In this document: positions 37,746 to 63,922 of the stretch, in pieces
Layout: the number at the start of each line of letters is the position of its first letter
Position numbering within the stretch: the first letter of the stretch is position 1
Source of the DNA: Dehalococcoidia bacterium
Lineage (GTDB): Bacteria; Chloroflexota; Dehalococcoidia; Lucifugimonadales; GCA-2712585
Assembly: GCA_965261665.1 (NCBI GenBank)
Contig: OZ253467.1
Location: 2,777,798 to 2,841,797, forward strand
DNA: 64,000 nt
Reading direction: 5' to 3'
Program-made: the position numbers and the translations under genes
The notes under the pieces: model-generated
What the model saw: only the letters and a program-made list of their open reading frames with translations
Database searches by the model: none
Told to the model about the DNA's origin: nothing

Positions 37746-37765
37746 ATCAAAAGAGGAGTTCCTGA

Positions 37766-38953: not shown

Positions 38954-38955
38954 CC

Positions 38956-39690: not shown

Positions 39691-40508
39691 CTACACAATT
39701 TAATACCCTTCCCATTGTGGCCGCCCTTCAGATGATCCGAGCCGAAATCAACCTCCGGGAGTTCAACCGCTGGATGGGTAGTAAGCGACTGCAGGACCCG
39801 GACCATGCCATGCACTGCTTGCTGAAAGAATGCTTCGGTGAACTGGCTCCACTGCCCTTTCGCCTCATAGCGCCTCGTCAAGGGTCCCGCGGGTTTCTCT
39901 ATGGCTACGGCACAACCGACGCCTCGGCCCTTCGGGACGCTGCCGCCATCTACGCCGACCCGCTTCAATGCCGCATCATGCCCCTCCATAAACTGGACAG
40001 CAAGCCCATGCCATCCCAATGGCAAATGGGCAAACGACTAGGCTTCGAAACACGCATCCGTCCCGTCGTACGCCTCCAAAAGGACCTCTCGCGTGTTCCG
40101 GCCGACAAGCTGCGTCTTTTCCGAGTGAATCGGCGGAATGGTGACGATCCGGAAAAGCAACCTCGCCCTGGTAAAGAATGCGACGCCTTCCAGTGGGAGG
40201 CGCTCCTGCAACCCAAAAGGGGAATGAACCGTAGCCGGGAGGAAGTCTACAACGAGTGGCTTGGATCGAAACTAAAAGGATGCGGCGGGGCATCCCTGGA
40301 ACCCGGTGAAACCCGGCTCGTCTCCTTCCAGCGCACCCGCGCCATTCGAAAACGTCACGCCCGTTACAGCGAGGGGCCGGACGCCGTCATGCGTGGCATT
40401 CTCAGAATAACGGACCCCGACGCCTTTGCCGCCCTGCTGGCCCGGGGCGTCGGCCGGCATCGCGCCTACGGCTACGGGATGCTGCTCCTACGGCCCCCTC
40501 ACAAATGA
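39687..40508 (+). CDS. cas6e: Cas6e/CasE crRNA endoribonuclease
   Basis: ATGA overlap with cas5. C-terminal glycine-rich loop GVGRHRAYGYGMLLL, comparable to E. coli GIGPAKSMGCGLLSL. Confidence 0.88.
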   Translation: MTTQFNTLPIVAALQMIRAEINLREFNRWMGSKRLQDPDHAMHCLLKECFGELAPLPFRLIAPRQGSRGFLYGYGTTDASALRDAAAIYADPLQCRIMPLHKLDSKPMPSQWQMGKRLGFETRIRPVVRLQKDLSRVPADKLRLFRVNRRNGDDPEKQPRPGKECDAFQWEALLQPKRGMNRSREEVYNEWLGSKLKGCGGASLEPGETRLVSFQRTRAIRKRHARYSEGPDAVMRGILRITDPDAFAALLARGVGRHRAYGYGMLLLRPPHK

Positions 40509-40598
40509 GACCCGGGCCTTTTGCACCTTACCAACTGAATAATGCCTTCCTGGTTCCCAGCGCACGAGCGGGGAACTAGGAACCATAGGAGGACCACC

Positions 40599-41534
40599 AT
40601 GCTCAGAGGCAGATTAGGGCTGGAAACGGCGAGGGTGCCCCACGCAGACCGTCACGGCCTGTTGTGGCTAAGCCGCGGCGCCCTCGCCGTTAAGGACGGC
40701 ACCTTGCGCTTTCTCCGGAATGATGGTGCGGACAGGTCCAGTCCGTTGGAAAGCGGCGAGTACGGCATCCCCTTTCAATCCCTCTCCATGATACTGCTGG
40801 GGCCGGGATCCACCGTTAGCCACGACGCCCTCCGTCTCATGGCGCGGCACGGAACCGCCCTAGTCGCCGTTGGGGAGGACGGTGTCAGGTGTTATACCGC
40901 TCCCCCGTTGATGCCGGACTCATCCGACATAGCCCGCCGGCAAATGCGGGCATGGGGGGATCCGAAGGGCGGGCGCATAGCCATCGCCCGAAAAATGTAC
41001 GCCCTGCGTCTTGGAGAGGTGCTTCCATTCCACGACTTGAACGCTCTACGCGGCGTTGAAGGAGGACGCGCAAAAAAGATGTACCGGCACCTTGCCCAGC
41101 GATATGGAATCACCTGGCAAGGCCGACGCTACGACCGTGGTAATCCCCTTGCGGCGGATATACCCAATCAAGCCGTAAACCACGCGTCCGTGGCCGTTAC
41201 CTCAGCTGCCGTCATTGCTGTGACCTCGGTTGGCGCCATTCCCCAGCTGGGATTCATACACGAGCACAGCGGCGACGCCTTCGCCTTGGACATTGCCGAC
41301 CTGTTTCGGGATAACGTCCTACTTCCAGCTGCCTTCAAGTCCGCCAAAGCAGTAATTGACAACCCCACCCTGGACATAGAGCGGCATACAAGACGGACGA
41401 CGGGAGAGATGCTCCGGAGCGAGCGGGTTGTGTCGAAAATGATCGACCGAATAAAGGCCCTCTTTCAGGACGTCTCGCCCCTTGACGTAGAGTCGCCGAC
41501 ACCGAAAAAGGGAAGTGGGAGGGCAAAACAATGA
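40599..41534 (+). CDS. cas1: Cas1e integrase
   Basis: 311 aa from ATG 40599, 7 nt after AGGAGG. Conserved LGFIHEHSGDAFALDIADLFR region; I-E gene order. Confidence 0.95.
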   Translation: MLRGRLGLETARVPHADRHGLLWLSRGALAVKDGTLRFLRNDGADRSSPLESGEYGIPFQSLSMILLGPGSTVSHDALRLMARHGTALVAVGEDGVRCYTAPPLMPDSSDIARRQMRAWGDPKGGRIAIARKMYALRLGEVLPFHDLNALRGVEGGRAKKMYRHLAQRYGITWQGRRYDRGNPLAADIPNQAVNHASVAVTSAAVIAVTSVGAIPQLGFIHEHSGDAFALDIADLFRDNVLLPAAFKSAKAVIDNPTLDIERHTRRTTGEMLRSERVVSKMIDRIKALFQDVSPLDVESPTPKKGSGRAKQ

Positions 41535-41818
41535 CCGTGGTAGTAACAGTAAACGTAGAAGCCCGCTATCGGGGATTCCTCGCATCCGTAATGCTGGAAA
41601 TAGCGCCTGGCGTGTACACGTCCCCCCAGATGACAGACGGAATTAGAGAGAGGATTTGGGACGTTTTAACACGTTGGTACTACGAACTAGGACAAGGAGC
41701 CATAGTGATGACTTGGCGTGATCCGTCCGCTGCGGCAGAACAAAGGATTAGGACCCTTGGCGAAGCGCCCAAGGAGATTGTGGATGCCGACGGAGTCTAT
41801 CTAGTGAAGTACAACTAG
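41531..41818 (+). CDS. cas2: Cas2e
   Basis: 95 aa, MTVVVTVNVEARYRGFLASVMLEIAPGVYT. ATGA overlap with cas1. No fused DnaQ domain. Confidence 0.93.
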   Translation: MTVVVTVNVEARYRGFLASVMLEIAPGVYTSPQMTDGIRERIWDVLTRWYYELGQGAIVMTWRDPSAAAEQRIRTLGEAPKEIVDADGVYLVKYN

Positions 41819-41920
41819 ACCAATGCCGCAACACTGCCGATAAGACGTTTCGGTCCAGGTTAGAAGCAAGAGCAACGGAGTAGCAGAACACGGCTAACAA
41901 GAATTACGAAAATCGTTAGG
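41819..41920 (+). promoter_or_regulatory. CRISPR leader
   Basis: 102-bp non-coding, locally AT-richer segment between the cas2 stop and the first repeat. This is the position of the I-E leader. Confidence 0.6.
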
Positions 41921-44900
41921 GGTTCCCCCGCACCCGCGGGGATAGACCTTACTTATCCCCCAGCCCCACCAACCCGCAGCCGGTTCCCCCGCACCCGCGG
42001 GGATAGACCGTTGCTATCTGCGGGGGATTTTTGCCCGGTAAGGGTTCCCCCGCACCCGCGGGGATAGACCTTGCCCTAAAACCTGGATAGATATTGGGTT
42101 TCCGGTTCCCCCGCACCCGCGGGGATAGACCTTCTTATTGTAGTTGTAGTTGTTGTAGTTAGTTGGTTCCCCCGCACCCGCGGGGATAGACCCACTCCCA
42201 TACTGGGCATGGTCACGTGTCAAATGGTTCCCCCGCACCCGCGGGGATAGACCGTAATCTCACACTTTACTAGCCATAAGCTAGCCGGTTCCCCCGCACC
42301 CGCGGGGATAGACCCGCAGTAGGTGTCAAACCGAACTTGCCCAAAATGGTTCCCCCGCACCCGCGGGGATAGACCACATGTGGCCTAGTACTCACTCATA
42401 CCCATTGGGGTTCCCCCGCACCCGCGGGGATAGACCGTTGGAGATGATCTATCACCAGATAGACACTCAGGTTCCCCCGCACCCGCGGGGATAGACCTTG
42501 GATTTGGAAGGCAAGCTCGAGGTTGAGGACGGTTCCCCCGCACCCGCGGGGATAGACCCCATGCGCTTGTCCTCCGGGTGTTGGGTTGGCAGGTTCCCCC
42601 GCACCCGCGGGGATAGACCTCCACAATAAGTCCTATATTTTTGGTTCTTATGGGTTCCCCCGCACCCGCGGGGATAGACCGTATACATCTAGCACATTAC
42701 TTAGTGTGCAATGGGTTCCCCCGCACCCGCGGGGATAGACCTGAGATGATGGAATGCTTACGTCGTATGGGCTCGGTTCCCCCGCACCCGCGGGGATAGA
42801 CCGTGTGTGGATTACTTACCCATAGCCTAGCCTATGGTTCCCCCGCACCCGCGGGGATAGACCTTGGGCAGAAAATATGGTACGGGTTGGAGACCGGGGT
42901 TCCCCCGCACCCGCGGGGATAGACCCTGGTAGCGATCTGTTGGACTGTGAGACCATCGGGTTCCCCCGCACCCGCGGGGATAGACCCTTGGCTGGTGTCG
43001 ATGGTTCCTGGCAGCTTGTGGTTCCCCCGCACCCGCGGGGATAGACCGTTTATTTTTGACACAGAATGGGTATCTAGGTAGGTTCCCCCGCACCCGCGGG
43101 GATAGACCTGAATTGAGAATGGGCTGGATTTCCGTATACATGGTTCCCCCGCACCCGCGGGGATAGACCTGTTTTGCCATCACCCATTCGTTCTGGGTTA
43201 GAGGTTCCCCCGCACCCGCGGGGATAGACCCCCCACCACCATATGAGTCCAAGTCTTAACGGGGGTTCCCCCGCACCCGCGGGGATAGACCCAGATAGCG
43301 ACTAGTTTGGGGTTTGACTACGCTGGTTCCCCCGCACCCGCGGGGATAGACCTTCATCTGGGGTTTGAAACCCCCTTTGGCTGGAGGTTCCCCCGCACCC
43401 GCGGGGATAGACCTGCCAATCTGCCTCTTCTCTTCTGCCTCTTCCCGGTTCCCCCGCACCCGCGGGGATAGACCTTCTGTATTGCTAGGCAGTTAAGGGT
43501 TGTCAACGGTTCCCCCGCACCCGCGGGGATAGACCTGGAAATTGCTGCCGTGTCTTGCCGCTGTGCCTGGTTCCCCCGCACCCGCGGGGATAGACCTGTG
43601 CTTGTGTTTAGCCATGCGTCACCGCCTCTGGTTCCCCCGCACCCGCGGGGATAGACCTTGGGTCAAATTCGTTCCAATTTGACCCAGTCTGGTTCCCCCG
43701 CACCCGCGGGGATAGACCCCACCACGGCCGACGTGTTGGGATTGTGAAGAGGGTTCCCCCGCACCCGCGGGGATAGACCCAGCCCTAGCATGTCAAGGGT
43801 TTGTTAAAGTTGGGTTCCCCCGCACCCGCGGGGATAGACCCTCTTTGAGTGTCTATCTGGTGATAGATAATCTGGTTCCCCCGCACCCGCGGGGATAGAC
43901 CATTATTTTAGGGTTGACAACCCTTAACTGCCTAGGTTCCCCCGCACCCGCGGGGATAGACCTACTCACACATGGATGGATAGGCTAGGCTATGGGGTTC
44001 CCCCGCACCCGCGGGGATAGACCCCTTGCCGCCCTCTGCCAGAAGTGCCACAACGCGGTTCCCCCGCACCCGCGGGGATAGACCTTTCAATGCCATTTTC
44101 TATACTCTCCTTATTGTGGTTCCCCCGCACCCGCGGGGATAGACCGCCACAACATCGACCGATTTAATCCTCTTCAGCGGTTCCCCCGCACCCGCGGGGA
44201 TAGACCCAGTTTTGGCACGGAGTATACTGAACAACCCGAGGTTCCCCCGCACCCGCGGGGATAGACCCCGCACGTGGTTGCCCCGTTTTGCTGTTTTAGG
44301 GGTTCCCCCGCACCCGCGGGGATAGACCCGTATACAGCGACTCAAAAGGTTCGGTAACGACGGTTCCCCCGCACCCGCGGGGATAGACCTACCTTTATAT
44401 TCAGAAGGTAATTTGGTTAATTGGTTCCCCCGCACCCGCGGGGATAGACCTTCGACCGATTCTTCCTCTATCGAATCGCAACCGGTTCCCCCGCACCCGC
44501 GGGGATAGACCGACAGGAGTGTTTAGCGTAATACTCTTGTGAGTGGTTCCCCCGCACCCGCGGGGATAGACCTTGATTGTGTGCTGGATTTCCATATATG
44601 TGGGAGGTTCCCCCGCACCCGCGGGGATAGACCGACTAAGGGGGCATTAGGCTTACTACTCCCAAGGGTTCCCCCGCACCCGCGGGGATAGACCCAGACT
44701 TAGCCAAGGAATACGAAGGCAAAAGGAGGTTCCCCCGCACCCGCGGGGATAGACCGCCAACGGCGGGCGGCACGGCGCAGCCCGCCGCGGTTCCCCCGCA
44801 CCCGCGGGGATAGACCATCTGCGCTGGAGTTCATTGACGGGTCTGATACGGTTCCCCCGCACCCGCGGGGATAGACCCAAAAGGCCGCTTCTCCCAGGGC

Positions 44901-47900
44901 GTGTCCAGCGGGTTCCCCCGCACCCGCGGGGATAGACCTGGTTCTGGAGTCGGCCCAAACTGACTTGGCCAGGTTCCCCCGCACCCGCGGGGATAGACCG
45001 GTGGCGGCGGGCTGCGCCGTGCCGTCCGTGCCGGTTCCCCCGCACCCGCGGGGATAGACCGTCGTCGCCTGTCATGCTGGCCAATGCGCTCCAGGTTCCC
45101 CCGCACCCGCGGGGATAGACCTATATAAGTAATGTAAGTAAGTCATGTAACATTGGTTCCCCCGCACCCGCGGGGATAGACCCTGGCCATCGGGAAAATC
45201 TGGGCCCACACTGCGGGTTCCCCCGCACCCGCGGGGATAGACCCATTTACCCTGGGGATTATTGTTACGTAACATTGGTTCCCCCGCACCCGCGGGGATA
45301 GACCGTGTGGGCGCAGTGTGGACGCAGTGTGGGCCCAGGTTCCCCCGCACCCGCGGGGATAGACCGGAGATGTTTTCTGAGGAATGGGCAAAGGCGTTGG
45401 TTCCCCCGCACCCGCGGGGATAGACCCTTTGTGCTAGTGGAGTTTTGGGCCATCCTTGGGGTTCCCCCGCACCCGCGGGGATAGACCTCTGATTTCGACA
45501 TCCTCCCGCCTAAGTGGAAAGGTTCCCCCGCACCCGCGGGGATAGACCCTTGGCTGGTGTCGATGGTTCCTGGAAGCTTGTGGTTCCCCCGCACCCGCGG
45601 GGATAGACCGGCGGCCGAAAAGGCAAAAATTGATCTGGAAAAGGTTCCCCCGCACCCGCGGGGATAGACCTTAAAAGGAGAAAAAATGACAACCATTACG
45701 AATGGTTCCCCCGCACCCGCGGGGATAGACCGATGTTCACGGCACGGGAAGCGTACTACGAGGCGGTTCCCCCGCACCCGCGGGGATAGACCTTGCTGTA
45801 AGTCAGAACCCGCATTCATTAAGGTGGTTCCCCCGCACCCGCGGGGATAGACCACGATTAAACCCATAATGAGATGATGGAATGCTGGTTCCCCCGCACC
45901 CGCGGGGATAGACCGGTTATCCTTGGCGGTGCTATTGGCAGGAGTCGGGTTCCCCCGCACCCGCGGGGATAGACCGCGGTCTTTGTCTTGTACACTGTCG
46001 ACCATGCGGGTTCCCCCGCACCCGCGGGGATAGACCGTTCCATTATGGTAATGACAGAGCTTTAAGGATTGGTTCCCCCGCACCCGCGGGGATAGACCTG
46101 CGTGTGTGGGGAAAATAGGGCCGTGGTCACAGGTTCCCCCGCACCCGCGGGGATAGACCCATTGTACTAGCAAGTTGAAGACCATGTATCGCGGTTCCCC
46201 CGCACCCGCGGGGATAGACCTATCATTGGCGTGCTGAGATAGCGATGCAATGTGGTTCCCCCGCACCCGCGGGGATAGACCGTTGCTATCTGCGGGGGAT
46301 TTTTGCCCGGTAAGGGTTCCCCCGCACCCGCGGGGATAGACCATTTACTGCCATCCGCACGTCCGTTCTACCTCTGGTTCCCCCGCACCCGCGGGGATAG
46401 ACCGCTAGCCAGCCGGCCCCGCAAAGGGGTTGCAATGGTTCCCCCGCACCCGCGGGGATAGACCTCGCCCTGCCGTAACGTGCTCGGCGATGAGCTTGGT
46501 TCCCCCGCACCCGCGGGGATAGACCATGATGGACGTGGGGCTGCGCCAACTCAACGCCGGTTCCCCCGCACCCGCGGGGATAGACCTTTCCTTGGGGCCA
46601 CAAAAGACATTACCCAAAGGGTTCCCCCGCACCCGCGGGGATAGACCTACCATCCCATTTGCGCCTAAATGATGGCGGGGGGTTCCCCCGCACCCGCGGG
46701 GATAGACCTTGATGCGGTGACGTGTGGGGTGGACATTCAAGGGTTCCCCCGCACCCGCGGGGATAGACCTTTGAAAACATGACCACCTGCTCCCCGCCGA
46801 GGGGTTCCCCCGCACCCGCGGGGATAGACCCTTAACGTAGTTAATATATAAGTAATGTAAGTAGGTTCCCCCGCACCCGCGGGGATAGACCCGGGCATAG
46901 CGACTCGCAGTTTCAGATACAGTTGGTTCCCCCGCACCCGCGGGGATAGACCTGCCGTATTGAGCGTTCCCACGTTGGCATAGGCGGTTCCCCCGCACCC
47001 GCGGGGATAGACCTCCGGATGAGGGATAGTCGAACAAAGTACATAGGGTTCCCCCGCACCCGCGGGGATAGACCTGCGTTGCGCTGGGTTGATGGCAATA
47101 ACAAGAGGGTTCCCCCGCACCCGCGGGGATAGACCTTTGATTTAGGGCTTCGTCGATTGTGTACGCACGGTTCCCCCGCACCCGCGGGGATAGACCCGCA
47201 GTTTGTGTCCATTGTGCATTCTTCGTAAAGGTTCCCCCGCACCCGCGGGGATAGACCCTACTTGTATATCGAAACGCTTGGATTTCCAAAGGTTCCCCCG
47301 CACCCGCGGGGATAGACCTTATTTGCACTTTAGCGGAAAATTCCTCAGTCGGGTTCCCCCGCACCCGCGGGGATAGACCGGCAAGCGGAAATACGCCGCA
47401 AACCAAGACACCGGTTCCCCCGCACCCGCGGGGATAGACCTACAGGAAAGCCATTGCGTTTGTCAAGCGTTACGGTTCCCCCGCACCCGCGGGGATAGAC
47501 CTACCCAAAATCACAAGACATCTGCGACCTATGGGGTTCCCCCGCACCCGCGGGGATAGACCTGCCTTGTATGCTCACCACGGAGCCAGCGGATGGGTTC
47601 CCCCGCACCCGCGGGGATAGACCCAGCATGGGCGAGGCAGTACAAGAGCAACTCGAGGTTCCCCCGCACCCGCGGGGATAGACCATCGTCGCCTGTCATG
47701 CTGGCCAGTGCGCCCCAGGTTCCCCCGCACCCGCGGGGATAGACCCTTAAAGAAAGCCTTAAACCTCGTTTCCATATCGGTTCCCCCGCACCCGCGGGGA
47801 TAGACCGTCGGTTCGACTTGCTCGCTGGCCGTCTAAAGCGGTTCCCCCGCACCCGCGGGGATAGACCTGCCAACCCAACTTTACTAGCCATAGCCTAGCC

Positions 47901-50900
47901 GGGTTCCCCCGCACCCGCGGGGATAGACCCCCGCTCTTTTCTTTGCTTCATCTACTAATCGCGGTTCCCCCGCACCCGCGGGGATAGACCTCCACAGTGA
48001 TATTTCCAATGCCTTATCTGAAAGGTTCCCCCGCACCCGCGGGGATAGACCGCGGGAATATGCACTTGGTGTCCATGCCCTAGAGGTTCCCCCGCACCCG
48101 CGGGGATAGACCGACGCCGCTGGGCGGATTCTAGCTATAAAATGTGGTTCCCCCGCACCCGCGGGGATAGACCGTCACGTCTAAGGGGTCTAGGAGGCTG
48201 TGAGAAGGTTCCCCCGCACCCGCGGGGATAGACCCCCGAGTCACCAATGGGAGTCTAAACGTGTACAGGTTCCCCCGCACCCGCGGGGATAGACCATACA
48301 CTTACATATAGGAGATACTATGGATAGAGGTTCCCCCGCACCCGCGGGGATAGACCGGTACACTTTCGACTCGAGGAGCACCCATTTTCGGTTCCCCCGC
48401 ACCCGCGGGGATAGACCTTAGTGAGCCCGTATCTCCAAATGCCTTTTCTGGGTTCCCCCGCACCCGCGGGGATAGACCGAAATGAAACCCTAGACTGCCT
48501 TGTTTACGCATGGTTCCCCCGCACCCGCGGGGATAGACCTTTCAAAGGATTTCCCTTAAGGCCCTTATTCGTGGTTCCCCCGCACCCGCGGGGATAGACC
48601 TTTAGAGGATGCAGAAAAGGCATTTGGAGATACGGTTCCCCCGCACCCGCGGGGATAGACCCGCAACGCTGGCGGGCGGGTCTTGCTCAAGCAGGGTTCC
48701 CCCGCACCCGCGGGGATAGACCCCGACAGCAAGCCGAGCGGCTGGGGGTTTTTGAGGTTCCCCCGCACCCGCGGGGATAGACCTGGCTTGTGGCGTGGGC
48801 GCACGAGCACGCCGAAGGTTCCCCCGCACCCGCGGGGATAGACCTATGTATGTCATTGCTTTGGTCTCCTCTTCCTTGGTTCCCCCGCACCCGCGGGGAT
48901 AGACCCAGCGCTCTCGATTCCGCAAGGGAAGGCAAGCGGGTTCCCCCGCACCCGCGGGGATAGACCCCATAAAAAACCATAAAAAACCCCCACATTTGGG
49001 GTTCCCCCGCACCCGCGGGGATAGACCGTCCGTTCGACTTGCTCGTTGACCGTCTAAAGCGGTTCCCCCGCACCCGCGGGGATAGACCATGCACATAAAT
49101 AAGACAGAGTAAGCACGATGTGGTTCCCCCGCACCCGCGGGGATAGACCCAACAATTCATCTACCATATCTCGATTCGTAATGGTTCCCCCGCACCCGCG
49201 GGGATAGACCTAGCCACCATACGTTTCTGGGCAATGGTTGTTAGGTTCCCCCGCACCCGCGGGGATAGACCTCTCCCGAAACCGCCACACTGCCCCTTGC
49301 TTCCGGTTCCCCCGCACCCGCGGGGATAGACCCGACCTTTGTGCCATCCGCTGGGGAGTGGGGCAGGTTCCCCCGCACCCGCGGGGATAGACCGGCAATG
49401 GCTTGAACAGTTTTCCCCAAACCCATGGTTCCCCCGCACCCGCGGGGATAGACCTCTGCCACCAATGCACCGCCTTTCAGATTATGAGGTTCCCCCGCAC
49501 CCGCGGGGATAGACCTAATCCCCAGGGTAAAATGTTACGTAACAACCAGGTTCCCCCGCACCCGCGGGGATAGACCTCGCCAATGGCTTGGCGATTTCAA
49601 AATGCATCCGGTTCCCCCGCACCCGCGGGGATAGACCTCGATTCTGCGAGCAGCAGTTTTCCTTGGAATCGGTTCCCCCGCACCCGCGGGGATAGACCCA
49701 TGATGATCGCATGGCCCGCAATGTCGGCGGGGGTTCCCCCGCACCCGCGGGGATAGACCGCTCCTTGCCGCGCCCTATGTCGGGCATACTATGGTTCCCC
49801 CGCACCCGCGGGGATAGACCGCGGGCGTGGGTAGCATTCTTGATGCTAGATAGGGTTCCCCCGCACCCGCGGGGATAGACCGGCGCAGCAGATTATTACC
49901 ACTACGCCCAAACCGGTTCCCCCGCACCCGCGGGGATAGACCCGCCAAGCTACACGCACCAGACGTACTTCTACGGGTTCCCCCGCACCCGCGGGGATAG
50001 ACCTGGCTCACACCTACGCCCACGCCCGCAAATGGAGGTTCCCCCGCACCCGCGGGGATAGACCGACGTCTAGGATGCCCTTGAGGATGGTCTAAAGGGT
50101 TCCCCCGCACCCGCGGGGATAGACCCCTTTTACATCATTATGTTCAAGGATAGTAACCGGTTCCCCCGCACCCGCGGGGATAGACCTTGGCGTTTATCAG
50201 GGAGATACGCCAACTATCAGGTTCCCCCGCACCCGCGGGGATAGACCTATTGCGACTCACGGGCTGCGGGTTGGTGGGGCGGTTCCCCCGCACCCGCGGG
50301 GATAGACCTACGGCGCACGTGCACCGGGCACTGGAAGATTCGGTTCCCCCGCACCCGCGGGGATAGACCCTGCGGACATTTGCGGAAAAATTGGGGCTGA
50401 GTGGTTCCCCCGCACCCGCGGGGATAGACCCCGTTACTACCAGAATTTCCCGTTCGACCTCGCGGTTCCCCCGCACCCGCGGGGATAGACCTTTTCTTAT
50501 TAGCCTCTCTTTGACTGTACCCCCGGTTCCCCCGCACCCGCGGGGATAGACCGCATCAATGGGCGGTCAGGTGGCCGCATACGCAGGTTCCCCCGCACCC
50601 GCGGGGATAGACCTGTCTCCCAAACGTCGCTCTGCAAATCTCCCGAGGTTCCCCCGCACCCGCGGGGATAGACCGACGCTGCTCAGTGGATTCTAGCTAT
50701 AAAATACGGTTCCCCCGCACCCGCGGGGATAGACCGGTTCAAGCGGTCGATAGCAGATTGAGGCCTGCGGTTCCCCCGCACCCGCGGGGATAGACCTTCT
50801 AGCTATAAAATGCCGCTCGATTTGCGCCTGGTTCCCCCGCACCCGCGGGGATAGACCTCGATTCTAAGGGGCCTCTGCCGCCTTTTACGTGGTTCCCCCG

Positions 50901-53490
50901 CACCCGCGGGGATAGACCTCTGAGTGAGGCCATCGCCGAACTGGAAAGCGCGGTTCCCCCGCACCCGCGGGGATAGACCGGCAGAAGAGAGCCGCCGGAT
51001 TGCACAGAAGCTGGTTCCCCCGCACCCGCGGGGATAGACCGATTTGAGATGCTTTTTTGTTGCTTCAAATTTCGGTTCCCCCGCACCCGCGGGGATAGAC
51101 CTCTATGATATCCGGTATCTCGGCCCAGTGAGACGGTTCCCCCGCACCCGCGGGGATAGACCACCATCTCCGTCCTTTTTCCGAAGCGTCCATTCGGTTC
51201 CCCCGCACCCGCGGGGATAGACCCCATGCTTCCCTTGGTCGGTTTTTCCAGCTCAAGGTTCCCCCGCACCCGCGGGGATAGACCTAGTAGTGTAGCACGT
51301 AAAAGAGGCGAGAAGGCGGTTCCCCCGCACCCGCGGGGATAGACCGCTAGAAGCAATGGAAGCAAAGGCAGACACAAAAGACAACGTGGTTCCCCCGCAC
51401 CCGCGGGGATAGACCTATGAAAAAAACCGAAGCCGAAGAATTTAAACTGGTTCCCCCGCACCCGCGGGGATAGACCGGAGCATAGAATGATTTCAGATAA
51501 GGCCTTAGAGGTTCCCCCGCACCCGCGGGGATAGACCCTGCAAACGGTATGGCCCAATCCAAAAATTAAAGGTTCCCCCGCACCCGCGGGGATAGACCTC
51601 CTTCGTCATAAACCCAGAATCCCTTTCCATTGGTTCCCCCGCACCCGCGGGGATAGACCTCTGGGCGTCCACGGCACGGCACGGGCGTTACGGGTTCCCC
51701 CGCACCCGCGGGGATAGACCCACTCACTGGCTACTTCTCCTTTGCTGTTATAGGGTTCCCCCGCACCCGCGGGGATAGACCTCAAGGACTCCATGAAAGA
51801 CATTGAGCCATATAGGTTCCCCCGCACCCGCGGGGATAGACCTTATTACATCTGGCTTTAGCAAATCTATCTGCAGGTTCCCCCGCACCCGCGGGGATAG
51901 ACCTCGAAAATCTGCAGTCCGTGTTCGGCGATAAGGGGTTCCCCCGCACCCGCGGGGATAGACCCTAGACTGAGAACATTTGAAGGTTTGGTGAATGGGT
52001 TCCCCCGCACCCGCGGGGATAGACCTTTTTAATTAGGAACGCCAACGCCCTCTGAGCGGGTTCCCCCGCACCCGCGGGGATAGACCCGATGCAGTCTTGG
52101 TTTGCGGCATATTTCCTTTGGTTCCCCCGCACCCGCGGGGATAGACCCTCCATACCATAATAATCCACCAAAGTTTGTAGGGTTCCCCCGCACCCGCGGG
52201 GATAGACCGTAGTAAAAAGCCCTGAACCTATCCAAACTATCGGTTCCCCCGCACCCGCGGGGATAGACCGTTTGTAGAGTCTTTATCCCTTTAGCTATTG
52301 TCGGTTCCCCCGCACCCGCGGGGATAGACCCCCTCTCCACTGCGGGCAGGCGGCACGGCGAAGGGTTCCCCCGCACCCGCGGGGATAGACCCTTTTAAAT
52401 GAACGGTCAGCTATCCTTGACTTTGGTTCCCCCGCACCCGCGGGGATAGACCGGTGGCGGGCTTCGCCGTGCCGCCTGCCGTATAGGTTCCCCCGCACCC
52501 GCGGGGATAGACCTTTCGCAAGGTCGATTTGCCTCTTCTCTTCTGCGGGTTCCCCCGCACCCGCGGGGATAGACCTTTGGTGGTATATATGAAACAACTG
52601 CATCAAAGGGTTCCCCCGCACCCGCGGGGATAGACCGTAAATCACTGGCGCAGCCCGCCAAGAAGGAGGGGTTCCCCCGCACCCGCGGGGATAGACCGTG
52701 ACGTCTTTAATGCTTTCACCTTACCGTTATGGTTCCCCCGCACCCGCGGGGATAGACCTCAAGCATATAGATGCTTGGGCAGAAAATGTCGGGTTCCCCC
52801 GCACCCGCGGGGATAGACCGTGAGCAGTCAAAGGGGGTTTCAAACCCCAGACGGTTCCCCCGCACCCGCGGGGATAGACCTTTGCCTCTTCTCTTCTGCC
52901 TCTTCCCGCAGTAGGTTCCCCCGCACCCGCGGGGATAGACCGGTAATCGTCGTTTGGCCTCGAGAAAAAGTGGAGGTTCCCCCGCACCCGCGGGGATAGA
53001 CCGCTTACAGGGAGAGGCGCAAAGACGATAAGGGCGGTTCCCCCGCACCCGCGGGGATAGACCGTTAAGGTCTCCGTCCCTTTTTGCCACAATTGGGGTT
53101 CCCCCGCACCCGCGGGGATAGACCATAGGAGGGCCGGAGCTCTGAAGGAGAAAATTCGGTTCCCCCGCACCCGCGGGGATAGACCGGTGAGCGGTTGACA
53201 GTAACGCAAACCACACCGGGTTCCCCCGCACCCGCGGGGATAGACCGCGGTCATGGATTTCTTGCAGTCGGTAGAGGATGGTTCCCCCGCACCCGCGGGG
53301 ATAGACCCGTACATTGAAGGGCTGATGCGCAGAGTCGCTGGGTTCCCCCGCACCCGCGGGGATAGACCCACTACTCTCGGCGCAAGACGCCGCCCATCGG
53401 CGGTTCCCCCGCACCCGCGGGGATAGACCGGAGTATAAAAATGATTTCAGATAAAGGCTTAGGGTTCCCCCGCACCCGCGGGGATAGACC

Positions 53491-53734
53491 ATATGTATGT
53501 CATTCTTTTGCTCTCCCTTCCTTGGTTCCCCCGCACCCGCGGGGATAGACCTCCGCACAAACCGACCTCGCCAAGGAATATGAGGGTTCCCCCGCACCCG
53601 CGGGGATAGACCATATGTATGTCATTCTTTTGCTCTCCCTTCCTTGGTTCCCCCGCACCCGCGGGGATAGACCTCCGCACAAACCGACCTCGCCAAGGAA
53701 TATGAGGGTTCCCCCGCACCCGCGGGGATAGACC
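53491..53734 (+). repeat. tandem duplication of a 2-spacer block (2 x 122 bp) inside the array
   Basis: The spacers starting ATATGTATGTCATTC... and TCCGCACAAACCGAC... occur identically at 53491/53552 and again at 53613/53674. Confidence 0.95.
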
Positions 53735-55931
53735 TCTGCGTTGCGTGTCCATGCCCTAGATGATATAGGTTCCCCCGCACCCGCGGGGATAGACCCACTA
53801 ATCACGGCGCAAGGCGTCGCTGAGCGGTGGTTCCCCCGCACCCGCGGGGATAGACCTTTTATATCTGTTGGTTCGTGCCTGTCGTGTGTGGTTCCCCCGC
53901 ACCCGCGGGGATAGACCCCACTACGCTGCCTTTTGCTGCTGCCTTTGCTTCGGTTCCCCCGCACCCGCGGGGATAGACCTTATGCTCAGATTATTCATCC
54001 CCGAATCTTCCAGGTTCCCCCGCACCCGCGGGGATAGACCTCTTAAGCGTCAAGGGCGCAGTAGATAAATCTCGGTTCCCCCGCACCCGCGGGGATAGAC
54101 CTTATATGCAAAATGGAATAGATTACCATAAAGAGGTTCCCCCGCACCCGCGGGGATAGACCCCTGCTCCCCGCCGAGGGAATCCAGATAATCTAGGTTC
54201 CCCCGCACCCGCGGGGATAGACCTGGATGCGGTTGCTCGATTGTTTAACTTGAAAAGGTTCCCCCGCACCCGCGGGGATAGACCGCCCACTTGACGTATG
54301 GGCCGGATTCCTATATGGGTTCCCCCGCACCCGCGGGGATAGACCTTGGCCATAATTCCCTTCCACAATGGTTCTTCCGGTTCCCCCGCACCCGCGGGGA
54401 TAGACCTTTTCCTCTTCTTCAGCATTTCTTCCATCAAAAGGTTCCCCCGCACCCGCGGGGATAGACCTGGCATATTGGGGTACATTCGACAAAGATAGAA
54501 GGTTCCCCCGCACCCGCGGGGATAGACCCGACTGAGGGCGCAACTGAAGCAAGCAAAGCTAGGTTCCCCCGCACCCGCGGGGATAGACCTCGATTCTGCG
54601 AAGCATGGTTTCCCTTGAAATCGGTTCCCCCGCACCCGCGGGGATAGACCTGGCCATCCTGTATGATTCGTTACGTAACGAAAGGTTCCCCCGCACCCGC
54701 GGGGATAGACCGGCGGGATTTTCTTTTGCCCTCCATGCCGACGGGGTTCCCCCGCACCCGCGGGGATAGACCCCCATCGGAGGGCATTGGCAACGACGTT
54801 GTCGTGGTTCCCCCGCACCCGCGGGGATAGACCATGCTTTTGTTGCTTCAAGTCTCACGTCTCAAGGGTTCCCCCGCACCCGCGGGGATAGACCTCATTC
54901 TTTGGCCTCCCTTCCTTTGTGTTTCGTGGTTCCCCCGCACCCGCGGGGATAGACCTCGTGCGACTGCGAGCATCTTTATGATAGCTTTGGTTCCCCCGCA
55001 CCCGCGGGGATAGACCCTTGAGCCGAGACGATTAAACCCATAATAAAGTGGTTCCCCCGCACCCGCGGGGATAGACCTCACTGGCGCAAGCCGCTGGCGG
55101 GAAGGAGAAAGGTTCCCCCGCACCCGCGGGGATAGACCGGTTGTCCCCGACTCCCATGTATACGGAAATCCGGTTCCCCCGCACCCGCGGGGATAGACCT
55201 CCATTTTAAAGGGCCTCTCGCTTCTTTTACGTGGTTCCCCCGCACCCGCGGGGATAGACCTTTTATATCTGTTGGTTCGTGCCTGTCGTGTGTGGTTCCC
55301 CCGCACCCGCGGGGATAGACCGTAGTGTCGTAGCACGTAAAAGAAGCGAGAAGCGGTTCCCCCGCACCCGCGGGGATAGACCTACTGCCTCATTTGCGCC
55401 CCAATGTATGGCAATGGTTCCCCCGCACCCGCGGGGATAGACCTCAAGGATTTCAAGGGAAACCACCGCCCGCAGAGGTTCCCCCGCACCCGCGGGGATA
55501 GACCTACTGCCTCATTTGCGCCCCAATGTATGGCAATGGTTCCCCCGCACCCGCGGGGATAGACCGCATCTCGTCTGAGTAGGTCTCGGCGTCTTCTAGG
55601 TTCCCCCGCACCCGCGGGGATAGACCGTGGCGCCAACGAATGCGCCGTCAACAAATGCGGGTTCCCCCGCACCCGCGGGGATAGACCCTGATTTGCCTTT
55701 AGGTGGGTAGTGTGCATAGGGGTTCCCCCGCACCCGCGGGGATAGACCATGCTGGCGTAGTCAAACCCAAGACTGGTTGCTGGTTCCCCCGCACCCGCGG
55801 GGATAGACCTTTCTGGCCACTCCGCCAAAGTTAAGGTCTCCGGGTTCCCCCGCACCCGCGGGGATAGACCCGCAGTCCTTACACGCGCCAGTGATCTGCA
55901 CATGGTTCCCCCGCACCCGCGGGGATAGACC

Positions 55932-56663
55932 TTTTCCTATATCATCCCTACATCAAGTCAATCAGGTTCCCCCGCACCCGCGGGGATAGACCGCACCGAA
56001 TGACTTATCCATACGCTAGTCTATCGGTTCCCCCGCACCCGCGGGGATAGACCTGTGAACATCTTTGGGAGTATGCCTTTGAAGCTGGTTCCCCCGCACC
56101 CGCGGGGATAGACCCGGGCGATTTGGAGGGAGGTTTGTGTCCGGGGCGGTTCCCCCGCACCCGCGGGGATAGACCTAGACCTGGGGATGGACATCCTAAG
56201 CAGGGTGGGGTTCCCCCGCACCCGCGGGGATAGACCCCGATAATTCTTCGGGAACCTACAAATCGCGATGGTTCCCCCGCACCCGCGGGGATAGACCTTT
56301 TCCTATATCATCCCTACATCAAGTCAATCAGGTTCCCCCGCACCCGCGGGGATAGACCGCACCGAATGACTTATCCATACGCTAGTCTATCGGTTCCCCC
56401 GCACCCGCGGGGATAGACCTGTGAACATCTTTGGGAGTATGCCTTTGAAGCTGGTTCCCCCGCACCCGCGGGGATAGACCCGGGCGATTTGGAGGGAGGT
56501 TTGTGTCCGGGGCGGTTCCCCCGCACCCGCGGGGATAGACCTAGACCTGGGGATGGACATCCTAAGCAGGGTGGGGTTCCCCCGCACCCGCGGGGATAGA
56601 CCCCGATAATTCTTCGGGAACCTACAAATCGCGATGGTTCCCCCGCACCCGCGGGGATAGACC
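55932..56663 (+). repeat. tandem duplication of a 6-spacer block (2 x 366 bp) inside the array
   Basis: Six consecutive spacers (55932-56269) recur in the same order at 56298-56635. Confidence 0.95.
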
Positions 56664-59600
56664 GCATTTTACCGGTGGTCCAACTGCGCAAAGCGAGGTT
56701 CCCCCGCACCCGCGGGGATAGACCTACCCGGATTGAATAGACCCTACATTCACGACCGGTTCCCCCGCACCCGCGGGGATAGACCGGTTCCGGTTGCGGG
56801 ATTGACTTGGACGATAACGGTTCCCCCGCACCCGCGGGGATAGACCCCATGCGTCCTCGGACTCCTGTCATAAAGGATGGGTTCCCCCGCACCCGCGGGG
56901 ATAGACCTTCGCTATTGACCGCTTAAACCTCTGAAACTTCGGTTCCCCCGCACCCGCGGGGATAGACCTTTGAAAATCTTTGTCAAATATTTGATACATC
57001 AGGTTCCCCCGCACCCGCGGGGATAGACCTTATTACATCTGGCTTTAGCAAATCTATCTGCAGGTTCCCCCGCACCCGCGGGGATAGACCGATTCAGCGT
57101 GCCATTCGTGCCTAGATGTGCCAGGTTCCCCCGCACCCGCGGGGATAGACCGGATACACGTCTTACCTAGCGCGCTGCCCGTGAGGTTCCCCCGCACCCG
57201 CGGGGATAGACCGTATGCCGCCAACCAGGACACCGTCAATCATTTGGTTCCCCCGCACCCGCGGGGATAGACCGCTGAAACTTGTCGTTGATGACAGCCT
57301 GCCGGCGGTTCCCCCGCACCCGCGGGGATAGACCGCTGACAGTCCAGCAGATAGCTACAAGTTTAGGGGTTCCCCCGCACCCGCGGGGATAGACCTCCTC
57401 TTCAGCCAGTACTTAGAGTACACATATTGGTTCCCCCGCACCCGCGGGGATAGACCTTTTGGATTAGGCTAGCTTATGGCTAGTAAAGTGGTTCCCCCGC
57501 ACCCGCGGGGATAGACCCCTTGAACACTTGTGTCCTTTTGGCATGTGCAAGGTTCCCCCGCACCCGCGGGGATAGACCTATCACTCACTGGATAGGCTAG
57601 GCTATGGCTAGGGTTCCCCCGCACCCGCGGGGATAGACCTGGTGTAGCACGTAAAAGAGGCAAGAGGCCCCTGGTTCCCCCGCACCCGCGGGGATAGACC
57701 CCCACCACCCCCATGAATCCAAGTCTTAACGGGGGTTCCCCCGCACCCGCGGGGATAGACCTTATGTCTAGCCACGGCATAAACCCTGCTTATGGGTTCC
57801 CCCGCACCCGCGGGGATAGACCGCGTTTCGATATACAAGTAGTTGATAAAGTGACGGTTCCCCCGCACCCGCGGGGATAGACCCGCACTGACGATTGCTC
57901 GCCTAAAGCCGTCCCCGGTTCCCCCGCACCCGCGGGGATAGACCCCGATAACCACACCGATCACAGGTTATCACCACGGTTCCCCCGCACCCGCGGGGAT
58001 AGACCGCGTTAATGGGATTGGAAAGCGAAGGAGGGGAAGGTTCCCCCGCACCCGCGGGGATAGACCGGGTAGTGATAATGAGAGGGCGCGGGTGGTGCGG
58101 GTTCCCCCGCACCCGCGGGGATAGACCGATGACTCCCACGACGACTCCCACCAGGACTCCGGTTCCCCCGCACCCGCGGGGATAGACCGTGGTCTATGCG
58201 TGGTTTGACGCTCGGAATAGAGGTTCCCCCGCACCCGCGGGGATAGACCTTCGACGCTATATCCAAGTCCCGGAACAGCAGGGGTTCCCCCGCACCCGCG
58301 GGGATAGACCGGCGGTAAGCCTCCCGGAAAGCCGAAGCAGCGAGGTTCCCCCGCACCCGCGGGGATAGACCTCTATGACATCGGAGCGGATGATGCTGGC
58401 ATGGGGTTCCCCCGCACCCGCGGGGATAGACCCTCCGAGGACTCCCATCAGGATTCCCACCAGGAGGTTCCCCCGCACCCGCGGGGATAGACCCCACTAC
58501 AAGTCAGCTGGATCTTATCCTACTACCGGTTCCCCCGCACCCGCGGGGATAGACCAAACCTACCCATAGAGAGTTCTATGCTGAACAAGGTTCCCCCGCA
58601 CCCGCGGGGATAGACCTCCCGTGAGAACCTCAATCCAGTCTATTCCTTCGGTTCCCCCGCACCCGCGGGGATAGACCTAGGCACCGTTCCCGGAACCTCT
58701 CCGCCCATCGGGTTCCCCCGCACCCGCGGGGATAGACCTATTCTTCCCATATTATGATTTGCCCACACCTGGGTTCCCCCGCACCCGCGGGGATAGACCG
58801 GTTCGTTTATGATTCTCCGCCCCTTATCTTTAGGTTCCCCCGCACCCGCGGGGATAGACCCCACATCATCAGCGCCCCCCCCTACGTCACTATGGTTCCC
58901 CCGCACCCGCGGGGATAGACCTGCAGAGGTCGTTTTCAGGGATGCCGCGACCGAGGTTCCCCCGCACCCGCGGGGATAGACCTCTTTGCATTGACTTGAT
59001 TCACCAAACGTTCATGGTTCCCCCGCACCCGCGGGGATAGACCGTATTAACTGGTCTGTCTGGTGCTGTGGTCCGTGGTTCCCCCGCACCCGCGGGGATA
59101 GACCGCCGAAGACGCAAGCAGGAGACCCTGCTAAGGGGGTTCCCCCGCACCCGCGGGGATAGACCGTGAACCGCCCACCATTGGTTCGCCGCTCTAATGG
59201 TTCCCCCGCACCCGCGGGGATAGACCTCGCCATGCTTAAGGGCACATTGAAATATAAACGGTTCCCCCGCACCCGCGGGGATAGACCCCCGCTCCGTCGC
59301 CGTTAGCAGGCCGGCGCTGAGGTTCCCCCGCACCCGCGGGGATAGACCGGAGAAACACATACAGACCCCATTTCAACCCTCGGTTCCCCCGCACCCGCGG
59401 GGATAGACCCATATGGACTAGACTTCAACCACAACCGCGCCGGGTTCCCCCGCACCCGCGGGGATAGACCTTCGCCATTTATTTCACGCCACCTTTTCCA
59501 GAAGGTTCCCCCGCACCCGCGGGGATAGACCGCCTCTGCCTTACAGGTCTGCGAGGTCGATAAGGGTTCCCCCGCACCCGCGGGGATAGACCGATGGGGG

Positions 59601-62600
59601 TTGATGTTGATAGGAATATGCGTTAGGTTCCCCCGCACCCGCGGGGATAGACCCTTGGTGAAGCGAGCGTCTCGAAGGCTCAAGGGGGTTCCCCCGCACC
59701 CGCGGGGATAGACCCGATCGGACGTGAGGATATATGGACCGTTGAAAGGTTCCCCCGCACCCGCGGGGATAGACCGAACCGGTATATGGATGCGTGGTCA
59801 CAAAACAGGGTTCCCCCGCACCCGCGGGGATAGACCGTGATCCAAGTCCTCCTAATACTGGTGAAGTGTGGTTCCCCCGCACCCGCGGGGATAGACCATC
59901 GCCCTTGCGTACATCACGACTATTGATGAAGGTTCCCCCGCACCCGCGGGGATAGACCGGTAATAACTAAGGTGTTACCTGTAGTACCTGGGGTTCCCCC
60001 GCACCCGCGGGGATAGACCGCCTCCAGGGGATGTTCCGACAACAGGACCTCCGGTTCCCCCGCACCCGCGGGGATAGACCTAGTACGATGCCGGGCTACC
60101 TGGGCACGGGTACGGTTCCCCCGCACCCGCGGGGATAGACCCGCTAACATCGTCCAAGAATGCGGGCATGAAGAGGTTCCCCCGCACCCGCGGGGATAGA
60201 CCTTCACTTGCTGTCCATCGCCCGTGGCCATAATCGGTTCCCCCGCACCCGCGGGGATAGACCCAGCCCAGGAACCAGCACCACTATCAACTGATAGGTT
60301 CCCCCGCACCCGCGGGGATAGACCCGAGGGCCGTCTGGAGCTTGACGCACGGGCGGCGGTTCCCCCGCACCCGCGGGGATAGACCTTTCGCGACAGTGTT
60401 GGACGACCTGAAAATTGAGGTTCCCCCGCACCCGCGGGGATAGACCCCCTGGCCTCTTGTCTTCAAACGAAGGTAAAGAGGTTCCCCCGCACCCGCGGGG
60501 ATAGACCGAGGCTATACAATGACTACGATTGAAGCCCCGGGGTTCCCCCGCACCCGCGGGGATAGACCTCTTGATTAGTGGGTCAATCAATCCTTCGTTG
60601 TGGTTCCCCCGCACCCGCGGGGATAGACCTAGTCTACCGTCAAAGTTGGAGTTAGAGTACATGGTTCCCCCGCACCCGCGGGGATAGACCGGTTGGATGT
60701 CCTTCTCATGGGAACGAAGCGTTGGTTCCCCCGCACCCGCGGGGATAGACCCCCTTCGAAGCCCACACCAATAACCGCCGGCCAGGTTCCCCCGCACCCG
60801 CGGGGATAGACCTCACTCCCGAAACCCACAAACGCCTGAGTTATAGGTTCCCCCGCACCCGCGGGGATAGACCGTGTGTCGGCGACGTGGTGCTGATGAC
60901 ATGCTGGGTTCCCCCGCACCCGCGGGGATAGACCTATCAGAAAAGACTGCATCCGCCCAACCAGTTAGGTTCCCCCGCACCCGCGGGGATAGACCCATCA
61001 GCCGAGACTGGCCAGACCCCCCCCAAGTGGTTCCCCCGCACCCGCGGGGATAGACCCGTAGAGCACCTTTTGCAAGCGCAGCTAAACCTGGTTCCCCCGC
61101 ACCCGCGGGGATAGACCCGCCATCAATGGAAGACATGATGAAGGCATTGCGGTTCCCCCGCACCCGCGGGGATAGACCCGTCGCTCTCCTAATATCCGTC
61201 GAGGTCTCCGAGGTTCCCCCGCACCCGCGGGGATAGACCCGACGCCTTAGCTTGCCCATCCTTTATCCACGCGGTTCCCCCGCACCCGCGGGGATAGACC
61301 CCCTACGGATAGCCGCTAGGCGCACCTTCGACGGGTTCCCCCGCACCCGCGGGGATAGACCCTTTATATATTGGAGGTTCACCAATGCTTGCCAGGTTCC
61401 CCCGCACCCGCGGGGATAGACCCTCCAAGACGTACCGGCTCTTCCATATTTGTGTGGTTCCCCCGCACCCGCGGGGATAGACCCTCCAACCTCACTCCCG
61501 GAACCTGATCCAAAATGGTTCCCCCGCACCCGCGGGGATAGACCGAAGGCATTCCTCAACGCTGCCCGACAGGGCGTGGTTCCCCCGCACTCGCGGGGAT
61601 AGACCTTAGTTTCACAGCTTCCCTATCAAGTCGGGGGAGGTTCCCCCGCACCCGCGGGGATAGACCGCAGGACCACAGCAAAGCCCACCACCACGAGTCG
61701 GTTCCCCCGCACCCGCGGGGATAGACCCTGCTCTTGCTCATAACGTCGGTAGTGCGGTGGGGTTCCCCCGCACCCGCGGGGATAGACCCGTTGGTTAGCG
61801 TCAATATAGCGTTGGACATCGGGTTCCCCCGCACCCGCGGGGATAGACCGTCGTTGCCCCAGAATGCCAAGGTCGTCGTTACGGTTCCCCCGCACCCGCG
61901 GGGATAGACCTCGACCACCATAGACGGCTTCTGGGCTTACATCGGTTCCCCCGCACCCGCGGGGATAGACCCTCCTAAATGCAGACGACAGCCCCATGCG
62001 GCTGGGTTCCCCCGCACCCGCGGGGATAGACCGTCCGTGGAAGACTCCAAGGGCGAATTGGACCGGGTTCCCCCGCACCCGCGGGGATAGACCACCTGGT
62101 CTACAGACCCGACCGCATCAGCCTTGGGTTCCCCCGCACCCGCGGGGATAGACCCTGCACGGACTGCGGGAAGATTAAGAGGATAACGGTTCCCCCGCAC
62201 CCGCGGGGATAGACCTCGGTCTCTAGTATACACGCTATCCCGCCGTTTGGTTCCCCCGCACCCGCGGGGATAGACCTCTGGCAGGGTACTACGGGGACGT
62301 AGTGACGAGGGTTCCCCCGCACCCGCGGGGATAGACCTGGCACATACACCGCAGGCGAGACCCTGAGAGTGGTTCCCCCGCACCCGCGGGGATAGACCTC
62401 GCCTACGTAGTCCGCAAAGTCGGTTATTTCAGGTTCCCCCGCACCCGCGGGGATAGACCCGCTTGGCTGATCGGCATTACCCAAACCGCCAAGGTTCCCC
62501 CGCACCCGCGGGGATAGACCGCTGTTGCTGGACGATCAGTATAGCATCCTGGGGGTTCCCCCGCACCCGCGGGGATAGACCCGTAACGACTGCCGCCGGT

Positions 62601-63070
62601 GGGCTGCGTAGCGGGGTTCCCCCGCACCCGCGGGGATAGACCGGAGCAGCCAAAGCCGCGCCCCCCCCGCGCGGCTGGTTCCCCCGCACCCGCGGGGATA
62701 GACCGGCCACCTAGAGCACGTAGCGCCCATCCTATGGGGTTCCCCCGCACCCGCGGGGATAGACCCCTTACTTGGACTAGCCCTACCGCCGCTGAGACGG
62801 TTCCCCCGCACCCGCGGGGATAGACCTTTAGCATGGGCGCTCCAAACCCTTACCGCATTGGTTCCCCCGCACCCGCGGGGATAGACCCTGACGGCTATCG
62901 TACAGGCCCGATGGGATGAGGGTTCCCCCGCACCCGCGGGGATAGACCGTTGTGTTCTGTGGGTTTGGGCCTCATCAGCGCGGTTCCCCCGCACCCGCGG
63001 GGATAGACCCGGCTCCGGGTTCACTGCCGAGCTGGTGAACGGGGTTCCCCCGCACCCGCGGGGATAGACC

Positions 63071-63916: not shown

Positions 63917-63922
63917 TAGGTG

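Follow-up and report, generated by a model that had tools for sequence, protein, structure and literature searches.

Redundant young spacers in a long type I-E CRISPR array of an uncultivated Dehalococcoidia bacterium are consistent with primed adaptation to a small target pool

The presence of multiple or overlapping spacers against one invader, with priming as the cause, is textbook knowledge for type I CRISPR systems. The type I-E system CRISPR4 of Streptococcus thermophilus has a 28-nt repeat, 33-nt spacers and a two-base AA protospacer-adjacent motif (PAM) directly upstream, features shared by the locus described here; unlike that locus, CRISPR4 consists of short arrays in a Firmicute, and we know of no comparable redundancy in it. 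In primed adaptation by the type I-E system of Escherichia coli, protospacers selected upstream of the priming protospacer have AAG in the non-target strand, and those selected downstream have it in the target strand (PMC9699676). Interference-driven and primed acquisition has been reported for the type I-F system of Pectobacterium atrosepticum (PMC5059440), and mapped spacers have supplied bioinformatic evidence of priming (Nicholson 2019, as cited in PMC8482600). Here we describe a type I-E CRISPR-Cas locus, active now or until recently, from an uncultivated member of the Dehalococcoidia (Chloroflexota); the locus lies in a 64,000-nt stretch of DNA (contig OZ253467.1 of assembly GCA_965261665.1, positions 2,777,798 to 2,841,797; hereafter the window, to which all coordinates refer). 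The phenomenon is well known, and the window is an unusually large and clean natural example of it, with at least 359 repeats and ~260 consecutive acquisitions from an effective ~25 kb of sequence. To our knowledge, the host lineage has no culture and no known viruses.

Compared with the E. coli type I-E system, the locus belongs to the same subtype and has the same gene set, a 61-bp period, 33-bp inserts and a PAM that begins with AA. Priming in E. coli draws new spacers from a replicon that is already targeted, with the PAM away from the priming site, and this is the geometry of overlapping opposite-strand spacers in the window. The third PAM position, however, is loose here, with every base except A where E. 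coli has G, and it belongs to the spacer; the expected same-strand order is absent, and the run extends over ~260 spacers, compared with the few that are added in the laboratory; our reading is also drawn from a natural array alone. The P. atrosepticum I-F system and the Nicholson 2019 study provide a further likeness in that several clustered, oriented spacers per replicon form a footprint of priming in native systems, but their spacers were mapped to known targets, whereas the overlaps considered here lie within the array.

The main finding is that the young part of the array repeatedly sampled a small sequence space, and we put the probability that this focus was driven by primed adaptation, with one or a few related mobile elements as targets, at roughly 0.6. 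The 102-nt stretch between cas2 and the first repeat (41819-41920, plus strand) is nearly identical in the closest relatives, designated L001 and L002; it is therefore the leader, and the spacers near 41949 are the newest. Redundancy is limited to the young part, spacers 0-269 (41949-58404, plus strand), of which 261 are unique. In the old part, spacers 270-356 (58433-63714, plus strand; 87 spacers), a single tandem block duplication aside, related pairs are absent although ~4.9 are expected (P = 0.007), and pairs between young and old spacers number 2 rather than the ~32 expected. The G+C content also differs (0.543 in the old and 0.495 in the young part, p = 4e-4), with the host flank at 0.589. 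The old part represents a different, larger target pool. The contrast between the two parts suggests that the exposure of the lineage changed or that it marks the point where priming on one element took over.

Relatedness was determined by an all-against-all ungapped comparison of the spacers on both strands, with clusters formed at a score of at least 13. By this measure, 117 of the 357 spacers fall into 51 clusters, the largest of which has six members, and the non-identical related pairs consist of 35 on the same strand and 30 on opposite strands. When both strands are considered, a 12-mer is common to 57 pairs among the 342 distinct spacers, compared with 2.7 (maximum 7) in shuffled spacers and a second-order Markov control, and 40 pairs share a 15-mer where 0.02 are expected; the clustering is thus well above that of shuffled spacers. 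A preliminary description of this DNA had listed many spacers as overlapping or near-identical samples of a few loci, and all of its pairs, overlaps and coordinates were reproduced in our comparison. Same-register variants (spacers are named by their first position) include 42987/45549 with 1 mismatch, 45061/47685 and 47807/49028 with 3 mismatches each, 48113/50675 with 6, 50858/55200 with 7, 49638/54590 with 8, and 43231/57701 with 7 when aligned without gaps (20/21 in the 3' part). Two further pairs that had been placed in the same register, 51477/53430 and 48845/53491, are indeed variants but are shifted by 1 nt. Staggered overlaps on the same strand join 46831 with 45122 (19 nt), 45854 with 42742 (17 nt), 52514 with 52881 (19 nt), 46770 with 54163 (17 nt) and 55810 with 53064 (13 nt), and the 47-nt contig CTTAACGTAGTTAATATATAAGTAATGTAAGTAAGTCATGTAACATT that had been offered as an example is an exact merge of 46831 and 45122. 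The earlier inventory contained same-strand relations only; it lacked the 30 opposite-strand overlaps, the exact duplicates and the tandem block duplications, and it covered 41949-57733 of an array that goes on to the end of the window. The invaders that it called AT-rich are so only relative to the host, since the spacers have 49.6% G+C and the flanking chromosome has 58.9%.

The adjacent spacers 43353 and 43414 (43353-43446) are related to the adjacent spacers 52820 and 52881 (52820-52913), which lie 155 positions deeper in the array. As these relations are an opposite-strand and a staggered overlap rather than a duplication, these two loci were sampled next to each other on two occasions.

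It might be argued that the similarity originated within the array or its assembly, through repeat-mediated duplication followed by mutation or through merged strain variants. Exact tandem duplications at 100% identity do occur for blocks of 6, 3 and 2 spacers (55932-56663, 63071-63436 and 53491-53734), and in the relative L003 just 75 of 131 spacers are unique. The six-spacer block, on the plus strand, has a Tandem Repeats Finder period of 366 with 2.1 copies, and its identical pairs lie at an array distance of 6. Block duplication accounts for 12 of the 15 identical spacer pairs but for none of the variant pairs, and three exact duplicates are found at long distance (42010 = 46282, 51843 = 57030 and 53857 = 55261). 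Since duplication cannot yield staggered or opposite-strand overlaps, an upstream AA or codon-phased differences, and since the neighbours of variant spacers are unrelated, an origin within the array or assembly is hardly credible. The block duplications, together with one spacer that recurs at an array distance of 2 (55383 and 55505), are presumably products of repeat-mediated recombination.

The overlaps also allow the PAM to be read from the array, since a spacer that reaches past the 5' end of an overlapping spacer exposes its flanking bases. AA lies directly upstream in 12 of 34 such contexts in the window, against a background of 6.3% (p = 5.5e-7), and, when 61 arrays are pooled, in 20 of 27 perfect overlaps; the 61 are the window array and those of 60 relatives (from 80 related loci, each represented by ~10 kb of cas-proximal sequence). 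Only 18 of 348 spacers begin with A. The PAM is 5'-AA plus one incorporated base, which is the expected I-E arrangement, and the upstream AA confirms that the overlaps are genuine neighbouring protospacers. Across the 7153 33-nt spacers of the 61 arrays, the composition is 3-periodic, with positions 0, 3, 6 and so on to 27 lower in A and T, which suggests that the AA PAM falls in a preferred codon phase and that most protospacers lie in coding sequence; in the same spacers, AA is mildly depleted at the first five positions. PAM, target-pool size, coding frames and orientation rules, which normally need spacer-target mapping, are readable from the array alone.

Among the 261 unique spacers of the young part, the related pairs number 64 and the same-site pairs 13, and 88 spacers have a partner. 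When AA-flanked sites were drawn at random from simulated random genomes, these counts were matched at genome sizes of ~27 kb for the related pairs, 20 kb for the same-site pairs and 30 kb for the spacers with a partner. The young spacers fit uniform sampling of AA-PAM sites from an effective ~20-30 kb, a size that applies under uniform sampling and below which undetected divergent variants would shrink the true family-level region. Related pairs are distributed over the thirds of the run as 10/16/10/8/12/8, compared with 7.6/15.3/13.8/7.6/13.8/6.1 for a homogeneous pool. The thirds fit a single homogeneous pool, so sampling of this one small sequence space persisted throughout the ~260 acquisitions. 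Related and unrelated young spacers have equal G+C. The size of the pool, its evenness across the thirds and the synonymous variants considered below bear out the earlier proposal of repeated acquisition, over many events, from a small set of related elements.

The relative orientation of overlapping spacers bears on the mechanism of this focus. For a top-strand spacer, whose PAM is on the left, an opposite-strand partner on the right is PAM-out (the 3' ends overlap) and one on the left is PAM-in. The ratio of PAM-out to PAM-in overlaps in the window is 25:5 for pairs and 16:4 for loci (p = 0.012); in the 60 other arrays it is 28:10 for pairs and 26:9 for loci, with one tie (p = 0.006), and the combined ratio is 42:13 loci (p = 1e-4). 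Simulations of random sampling give 50:50 (3709:3719 and 481:481); a skew of 81:52 in an early, small simulation was a fluctuation that was gone in the larger ones. Pairs between arrays are symmetric (8:9), in contrast to pairs within arrays (39:9; score of at least 16, Fisher p = 0.011), and a bias that exists within arrays and is absent between them must depend on the spacers already present in that array. Since TT is not depleted in spacers (observed/expected 1.0-1.2), the bias does not arise from avoiding a PAM complement within them. The PAM-out geometry matches the published orientation rule of primed adaptation in E. coli (PMC9699676). In addition, related spacers lie no more than 10 array positions apart 11 times, a modest excess over the 4.5 ± 2 obtained under permutation.

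The preliminary description had invoked priming without evidence. The geometry bias, which is replicated in 60 arrays and absent between arrays, and the close-lying related spacers now provide indirect evidence for it, while the same-strand order does not. Priming is the best-supported driver of the focus, a cause that we infer and do not regard as proven. An alternative is naive acquisition followed by selection, in which one abundant and persistent family of viruses or plasmids dominates the incoming DNA and only spacers against that family are kept, with no feedback from Cas3. Such a process predicts the small homogeneous pool, the balanced use of strands and the lack of a same-strand order bias, and the share of same-site pairs (13 of 64) requires no special hot spots. 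It does not predict the PAM-out bias and its absence between arrays, nor the frequency with which related spacers lie near each other, and it is at odds with the near absence of redundancy in most related arrays, the closest named relatives of which are marine-sponge metagenome bins. We therefore consider naive acquisition with selection rather doubtful.

Several observations weigh against a focus driven by priming on one or a few elements. The order predicted for same-strand pairs, with the newer spacer upstream of the older, is not seen in the window, where the ratio is 14:10 at a score of at least 13 or 11:4 at a score of at least 14, nor in the relatives, where it is 14:20. Strand use is balanced overall (35:30), and the co-occurrence of different clusters in bursts along the array is not significant (18 vs 13 ± 4), striking as the example of 43353/43414 and 52820/52881 looks. 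Hot spots in a larger genome would yield the same pool figure, and the degree dispersion is 1.46 compared with ~1.05 in simulation, an elevation which indicates that some loci were over-sampled. The null model behind the synonymy count given below is imperfect. Finally, as no target was found in the phage, plasmid, IMG/VR, JGI and protein collections, the replicon and any gradient around a priming site are not visible. The footprint of primed adaptation in the window therefore consists of a small target space and the PAM orientation rule but not the same-strand order, and the single replicon is something that we infer.

If priming is the driver, the locus may have operated as follows. Cas1-Cas2 would insert 33-bp fragments beside the leader, taking them from sites that follow 5'-AA and almost never begin with A. 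Over the last ~260 insertions, nearly all spacers would have come from one pool of effective ~20-30 kb, formed by related variants of one or a few mobile elements and including protein-coding genes as well as some repeated or conserved non-coding motifs. Taking many spacers from little sequence leads to overlaps, to repeated use of the same PAM-defined site and to the recording of sequence variants. The focus would most likely be maintained by primed (Cascade/Cas3-dependent) adaptation, in which existing spacers, including those that match imperfectly, guide Cas3 to the element, and further spacers are drawn close by with the PAM facing away from the priming site.

A bolder and more tentative possibility is that the ~260 newest spacers constitute a ~0.3-fold shotgun sample of a single small element (no larger than 30 kb, with several variants) that coexisted with the host through hundreds of acquisitions, and that the PAM-out bias is a marker of priming which requires no target. 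Were the single-element reading true, the array would yield the PAM, gene pieces, repeats and diversity of the element, and a valid marker could be used on any array from uncultivated organisms. The bias, being replicated in 60 arrays, offers a way to detect priming where more than 90% of spacers have no database match. If the target element were recovered from the source metagenome, the array would document at length, and in order, how the element and the host interacted.

The variant spacers themselves provide some information on what is targeted. Spacer 47807-47839 (plus strand) carries three substitutions relative to 49028-49060, all of them synonymous in one frame (ALDGQRASRTD in both). 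All five differences between 43292 and 55749 are silent (5/5), and 45061 and 47685 encode VVACHAGQCAP and IVACHAGQCAP. Across 22 variant pairs in their best frame, 79 substitutions cause 19 amino-acid changes, compared with 34 ± 3 when they are placed at random, a null that ignores the clustering of mismatches at alignment ends. Variant pairs with only synonymous changes in one frame point to an origin in diverged homologous genes. Some targets are protein-coding, while other clusters look non-coding or repeated; the targets are probably mobile elements.

The non-coding clusters raise the question of whether many of the variants are copies of repeats within a single invader genome, such as iterons, promoters or terminator hairpins, rather than alleles of different invaders. 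The largest cluster (cluster 0) comprises the spacers 42254 (42254-42286, plus strand), 42803, 43963, 47868, 57457 and 57579, which share the core CTAGCCATAGCCTAGCCTATCC between divergent flanks, with three plus-strand spacers on the left and three minus-strand spacers on the right. Conserved cores with unrelated flanks are also found in cluster 7, which has the promoter-like TCTAGCTATAAAAT, and in cluster 1, which has a G+C-rich hairpin. Spacer 45244 (45244-45276, plus strand) and its opposite-strand partner 49516-49548, merged from cluster 22, suggest that the target contains a tandemly repeated unit of ~30 nt, GTTACGTAACATTTTACCCTGGGGATTATT. The 43-nt contig merged from 42254 and 57457 has no open frame, and several other merged contigs have only one; the degree dispersion of 1.46 could likewise reflect repeats. 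Repeats in one invader, however, leave the perfect staggered overlaps and the purely synonymous whole-spacer variants unexplained, and they would cover a minority of the 51 clusters. We find it improbable that they account for many of the variants, and related variants of one or a few elements remain the preferred source. The target region implied by 45244-45276 and 49516-49548, and also by 45122 and 54651, would be A+T-rich, with the GTTACGTAACATTTTACCCTGGGGATTATT unit and recurring GTTACGTAAC motifs, and is reminiscent of iterons at a replication origin.

The overlapping and near-identical spacers had also been described as the signature of an arms race. One mechanism for this would be that the invader mutates a targeted site to escape and the host re-acquires the updated version. 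Nine non-identical same-register pairs and two pairs shifted by 1 nt, kilobases apart in the array, have the form expected of such a process, and silent changes would be affordable to the invader in a coding gene. Mismatches in the nine same-register pairs, however, are not concentrated in the PAM-proximal seed (31% in seed positions 1-8 vs 24% expected). The three closest pairs differ at position 25, at positions 0, 23 and 29, and at positions 3, 18 and 21, that is, at PAM-distal or wobble positions, and several pairs have 6-11 differences, which looks like divergence of relatives rather than single steps. With no seed enrichment there is no sign of seed escape, and escape-driven re-acquisition is an unlikely source of the variants. 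Instead, they look like standing or successive diversity of related elements that was caught at the same PAM-defined sites.

Searches for the targets gave the following results. By megablast, the whole array had no match among 50,697 phage records and matched only CRISPR repeats among 72,556 plasmids, and a sensitive blastn search with the newest 8 kb returned only chance-level matches to phages (E >= 2). Eight exact or degenerate patterns had no match in IMG/VR, and two patterns, one of them wobble-degenerate for ALDGQRASRTD, had none in JGI metagenomes. Some 50-odd stop-free peptides of 12-17 residues from merged contigs, concatenated to 972 residues, had no match at E <= 10 among 5.8 billion proteins. 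The failure to find an external target in any collection searched is compatible with self-targeting, in which the related spacers derive from repetitive sequence of the host chromosome rather than from a mobile element. Within the window's 41.9 kb of host DNA, though, no spacer has a match even when 6 mismatches are allowed, and the non-array parts of the 80 related loci give only chance matches of 15-20 nt. Moreover, spacer G+C is ~9 points below that of the host, and variants of the loci targeted by the window array are also targeted in the related host L002. Self-targeting is accordingly a very remote explanation, and mobile elements are the preferred targets.

Comparison with relatives places the window at one end of a range. 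The two best relatives of its Cas1 have 96% and 92% identity and the rest 75-86%, all of them from metagenome-assembled genomes of Dehalococcoidia, SAR202, Caldilineaceae and other Chloroflexota; an exact look-up of the window Cas1 itself found no record. Some of these relatives bear bin names used in marine-sponge studies (PMC5649159, PMC6306507). In the first 157 spacers, the share that has a 13-mer in common with another spacer is 21% in the window, 14-15% in the next four arrays and ~3% at the median, with many arrays having none. The window array is the most redundant of the 61 related arrays and the extreme of a continuum. Its closest long relative, L002, has the same repeat, a Cas1 with 92% identity and 151 spacers, ~15 of which are variants of or overlap window spacers, so that the invader family is common to two related hosts; other related arrays share spacers with the window at chance level only. 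At the leader end of L002 (11361-11417 of that locus), two repeats lie one base apart, forming a repeat without a spacer.

This I-E repeat family often forms very long arrays in Chloroflexota metagenome assemblies: of the 80 related loci, from long-read assemblies, 14 have 157 or more spacers in the 10 kb examined. CRISPR enrichment has been described for sponge symbionts of SAR202 and Caldilineae (PMC5099237, PMC6306507, PMC5649159), and the window resembles these in that its closest Cas1 relatives are from Dehalococcoidia, SAR202 and Caldilineaceae genomes, some binned under the names of those studies, with the same I-E repeat family. It differs from the short-read bins of sponge Chloroflexi, in which arrays have at most ~34 repeats (PMC6306507), by its own count of at least 359.

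The array (41921-63742, plus strand) consists of a 28-nt repeat, GGTTCCCCCGCACCCGCGGGGATAGACC, with a period of 61 bp, and 358 of the 359 repeats in the window are identical, with one variant at 61578. As the array runs off the end of the window, 359 is a lower bound for the whole. The 357 spacers include 348 of 33 nt, eight of 34 nt (42864, 46037, 47868, 52514, 53918, 58494, 62643 and 63620) and one of 42 nt (51346-51387), and the 34-nt and 42-nt spacers are imprecise insertions. A repeat-free interruption of 180 nt (63743-63922) precedes the point at which the array resumes (63923). This interruption is not a second leader copy, as it lacks similarity to the leader, and none of the 80 related loci contains anything like it. 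Five non-identical related pairs lie exactly two positions apart in the array (45183/45305, 50675/50797, 52331/52453, 55200/55322 and 57457/57579) and none lies adjacent, a pattern of marginal significance.

A complete type I-E operon with all eight cas genes lies directly 5' of the array on the same strand (32753-41818), and each gene was called from Pfam and NCBIfam profile matches above curated cut-offs. The operon begins with cas3 (32753-35446), which encodes an HD nuclease and helicase (Pfam Cas3_HD, Cas3-like_C_2 and DEAD; NCBIfam cas3_core and cas3_HD), followed by cse1/casA (35458-37137), which had no Pfam match and was identified by NCBIfam TIGR02547 casA_cse1 at 86.6 bits (cut-off 70.05). 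Next are cse2 (37134-37745; CRISPR_Cse2), cas7 (37766-38953; Cas_CT1975), cas5 (38914-39690; Cas_Cas5d), cas6e (39546-40508; CRISPR_assoc and TIGR01907 casE), cas1e (40542-41534; TIGR03638 cas1_ECOLI, 269.8 bits) and cas2 (41531-41818; Cas_Cas2CT1978). The eight-gene operon, the leader that follows cas2, the array of 28-nt repeats and 33-nt spacers beyond it, and the AA-type 5' PAM place the locus in type I-E. The remainder of the window is occupied by chromosomal genes, such as that for DNA polymerase I.

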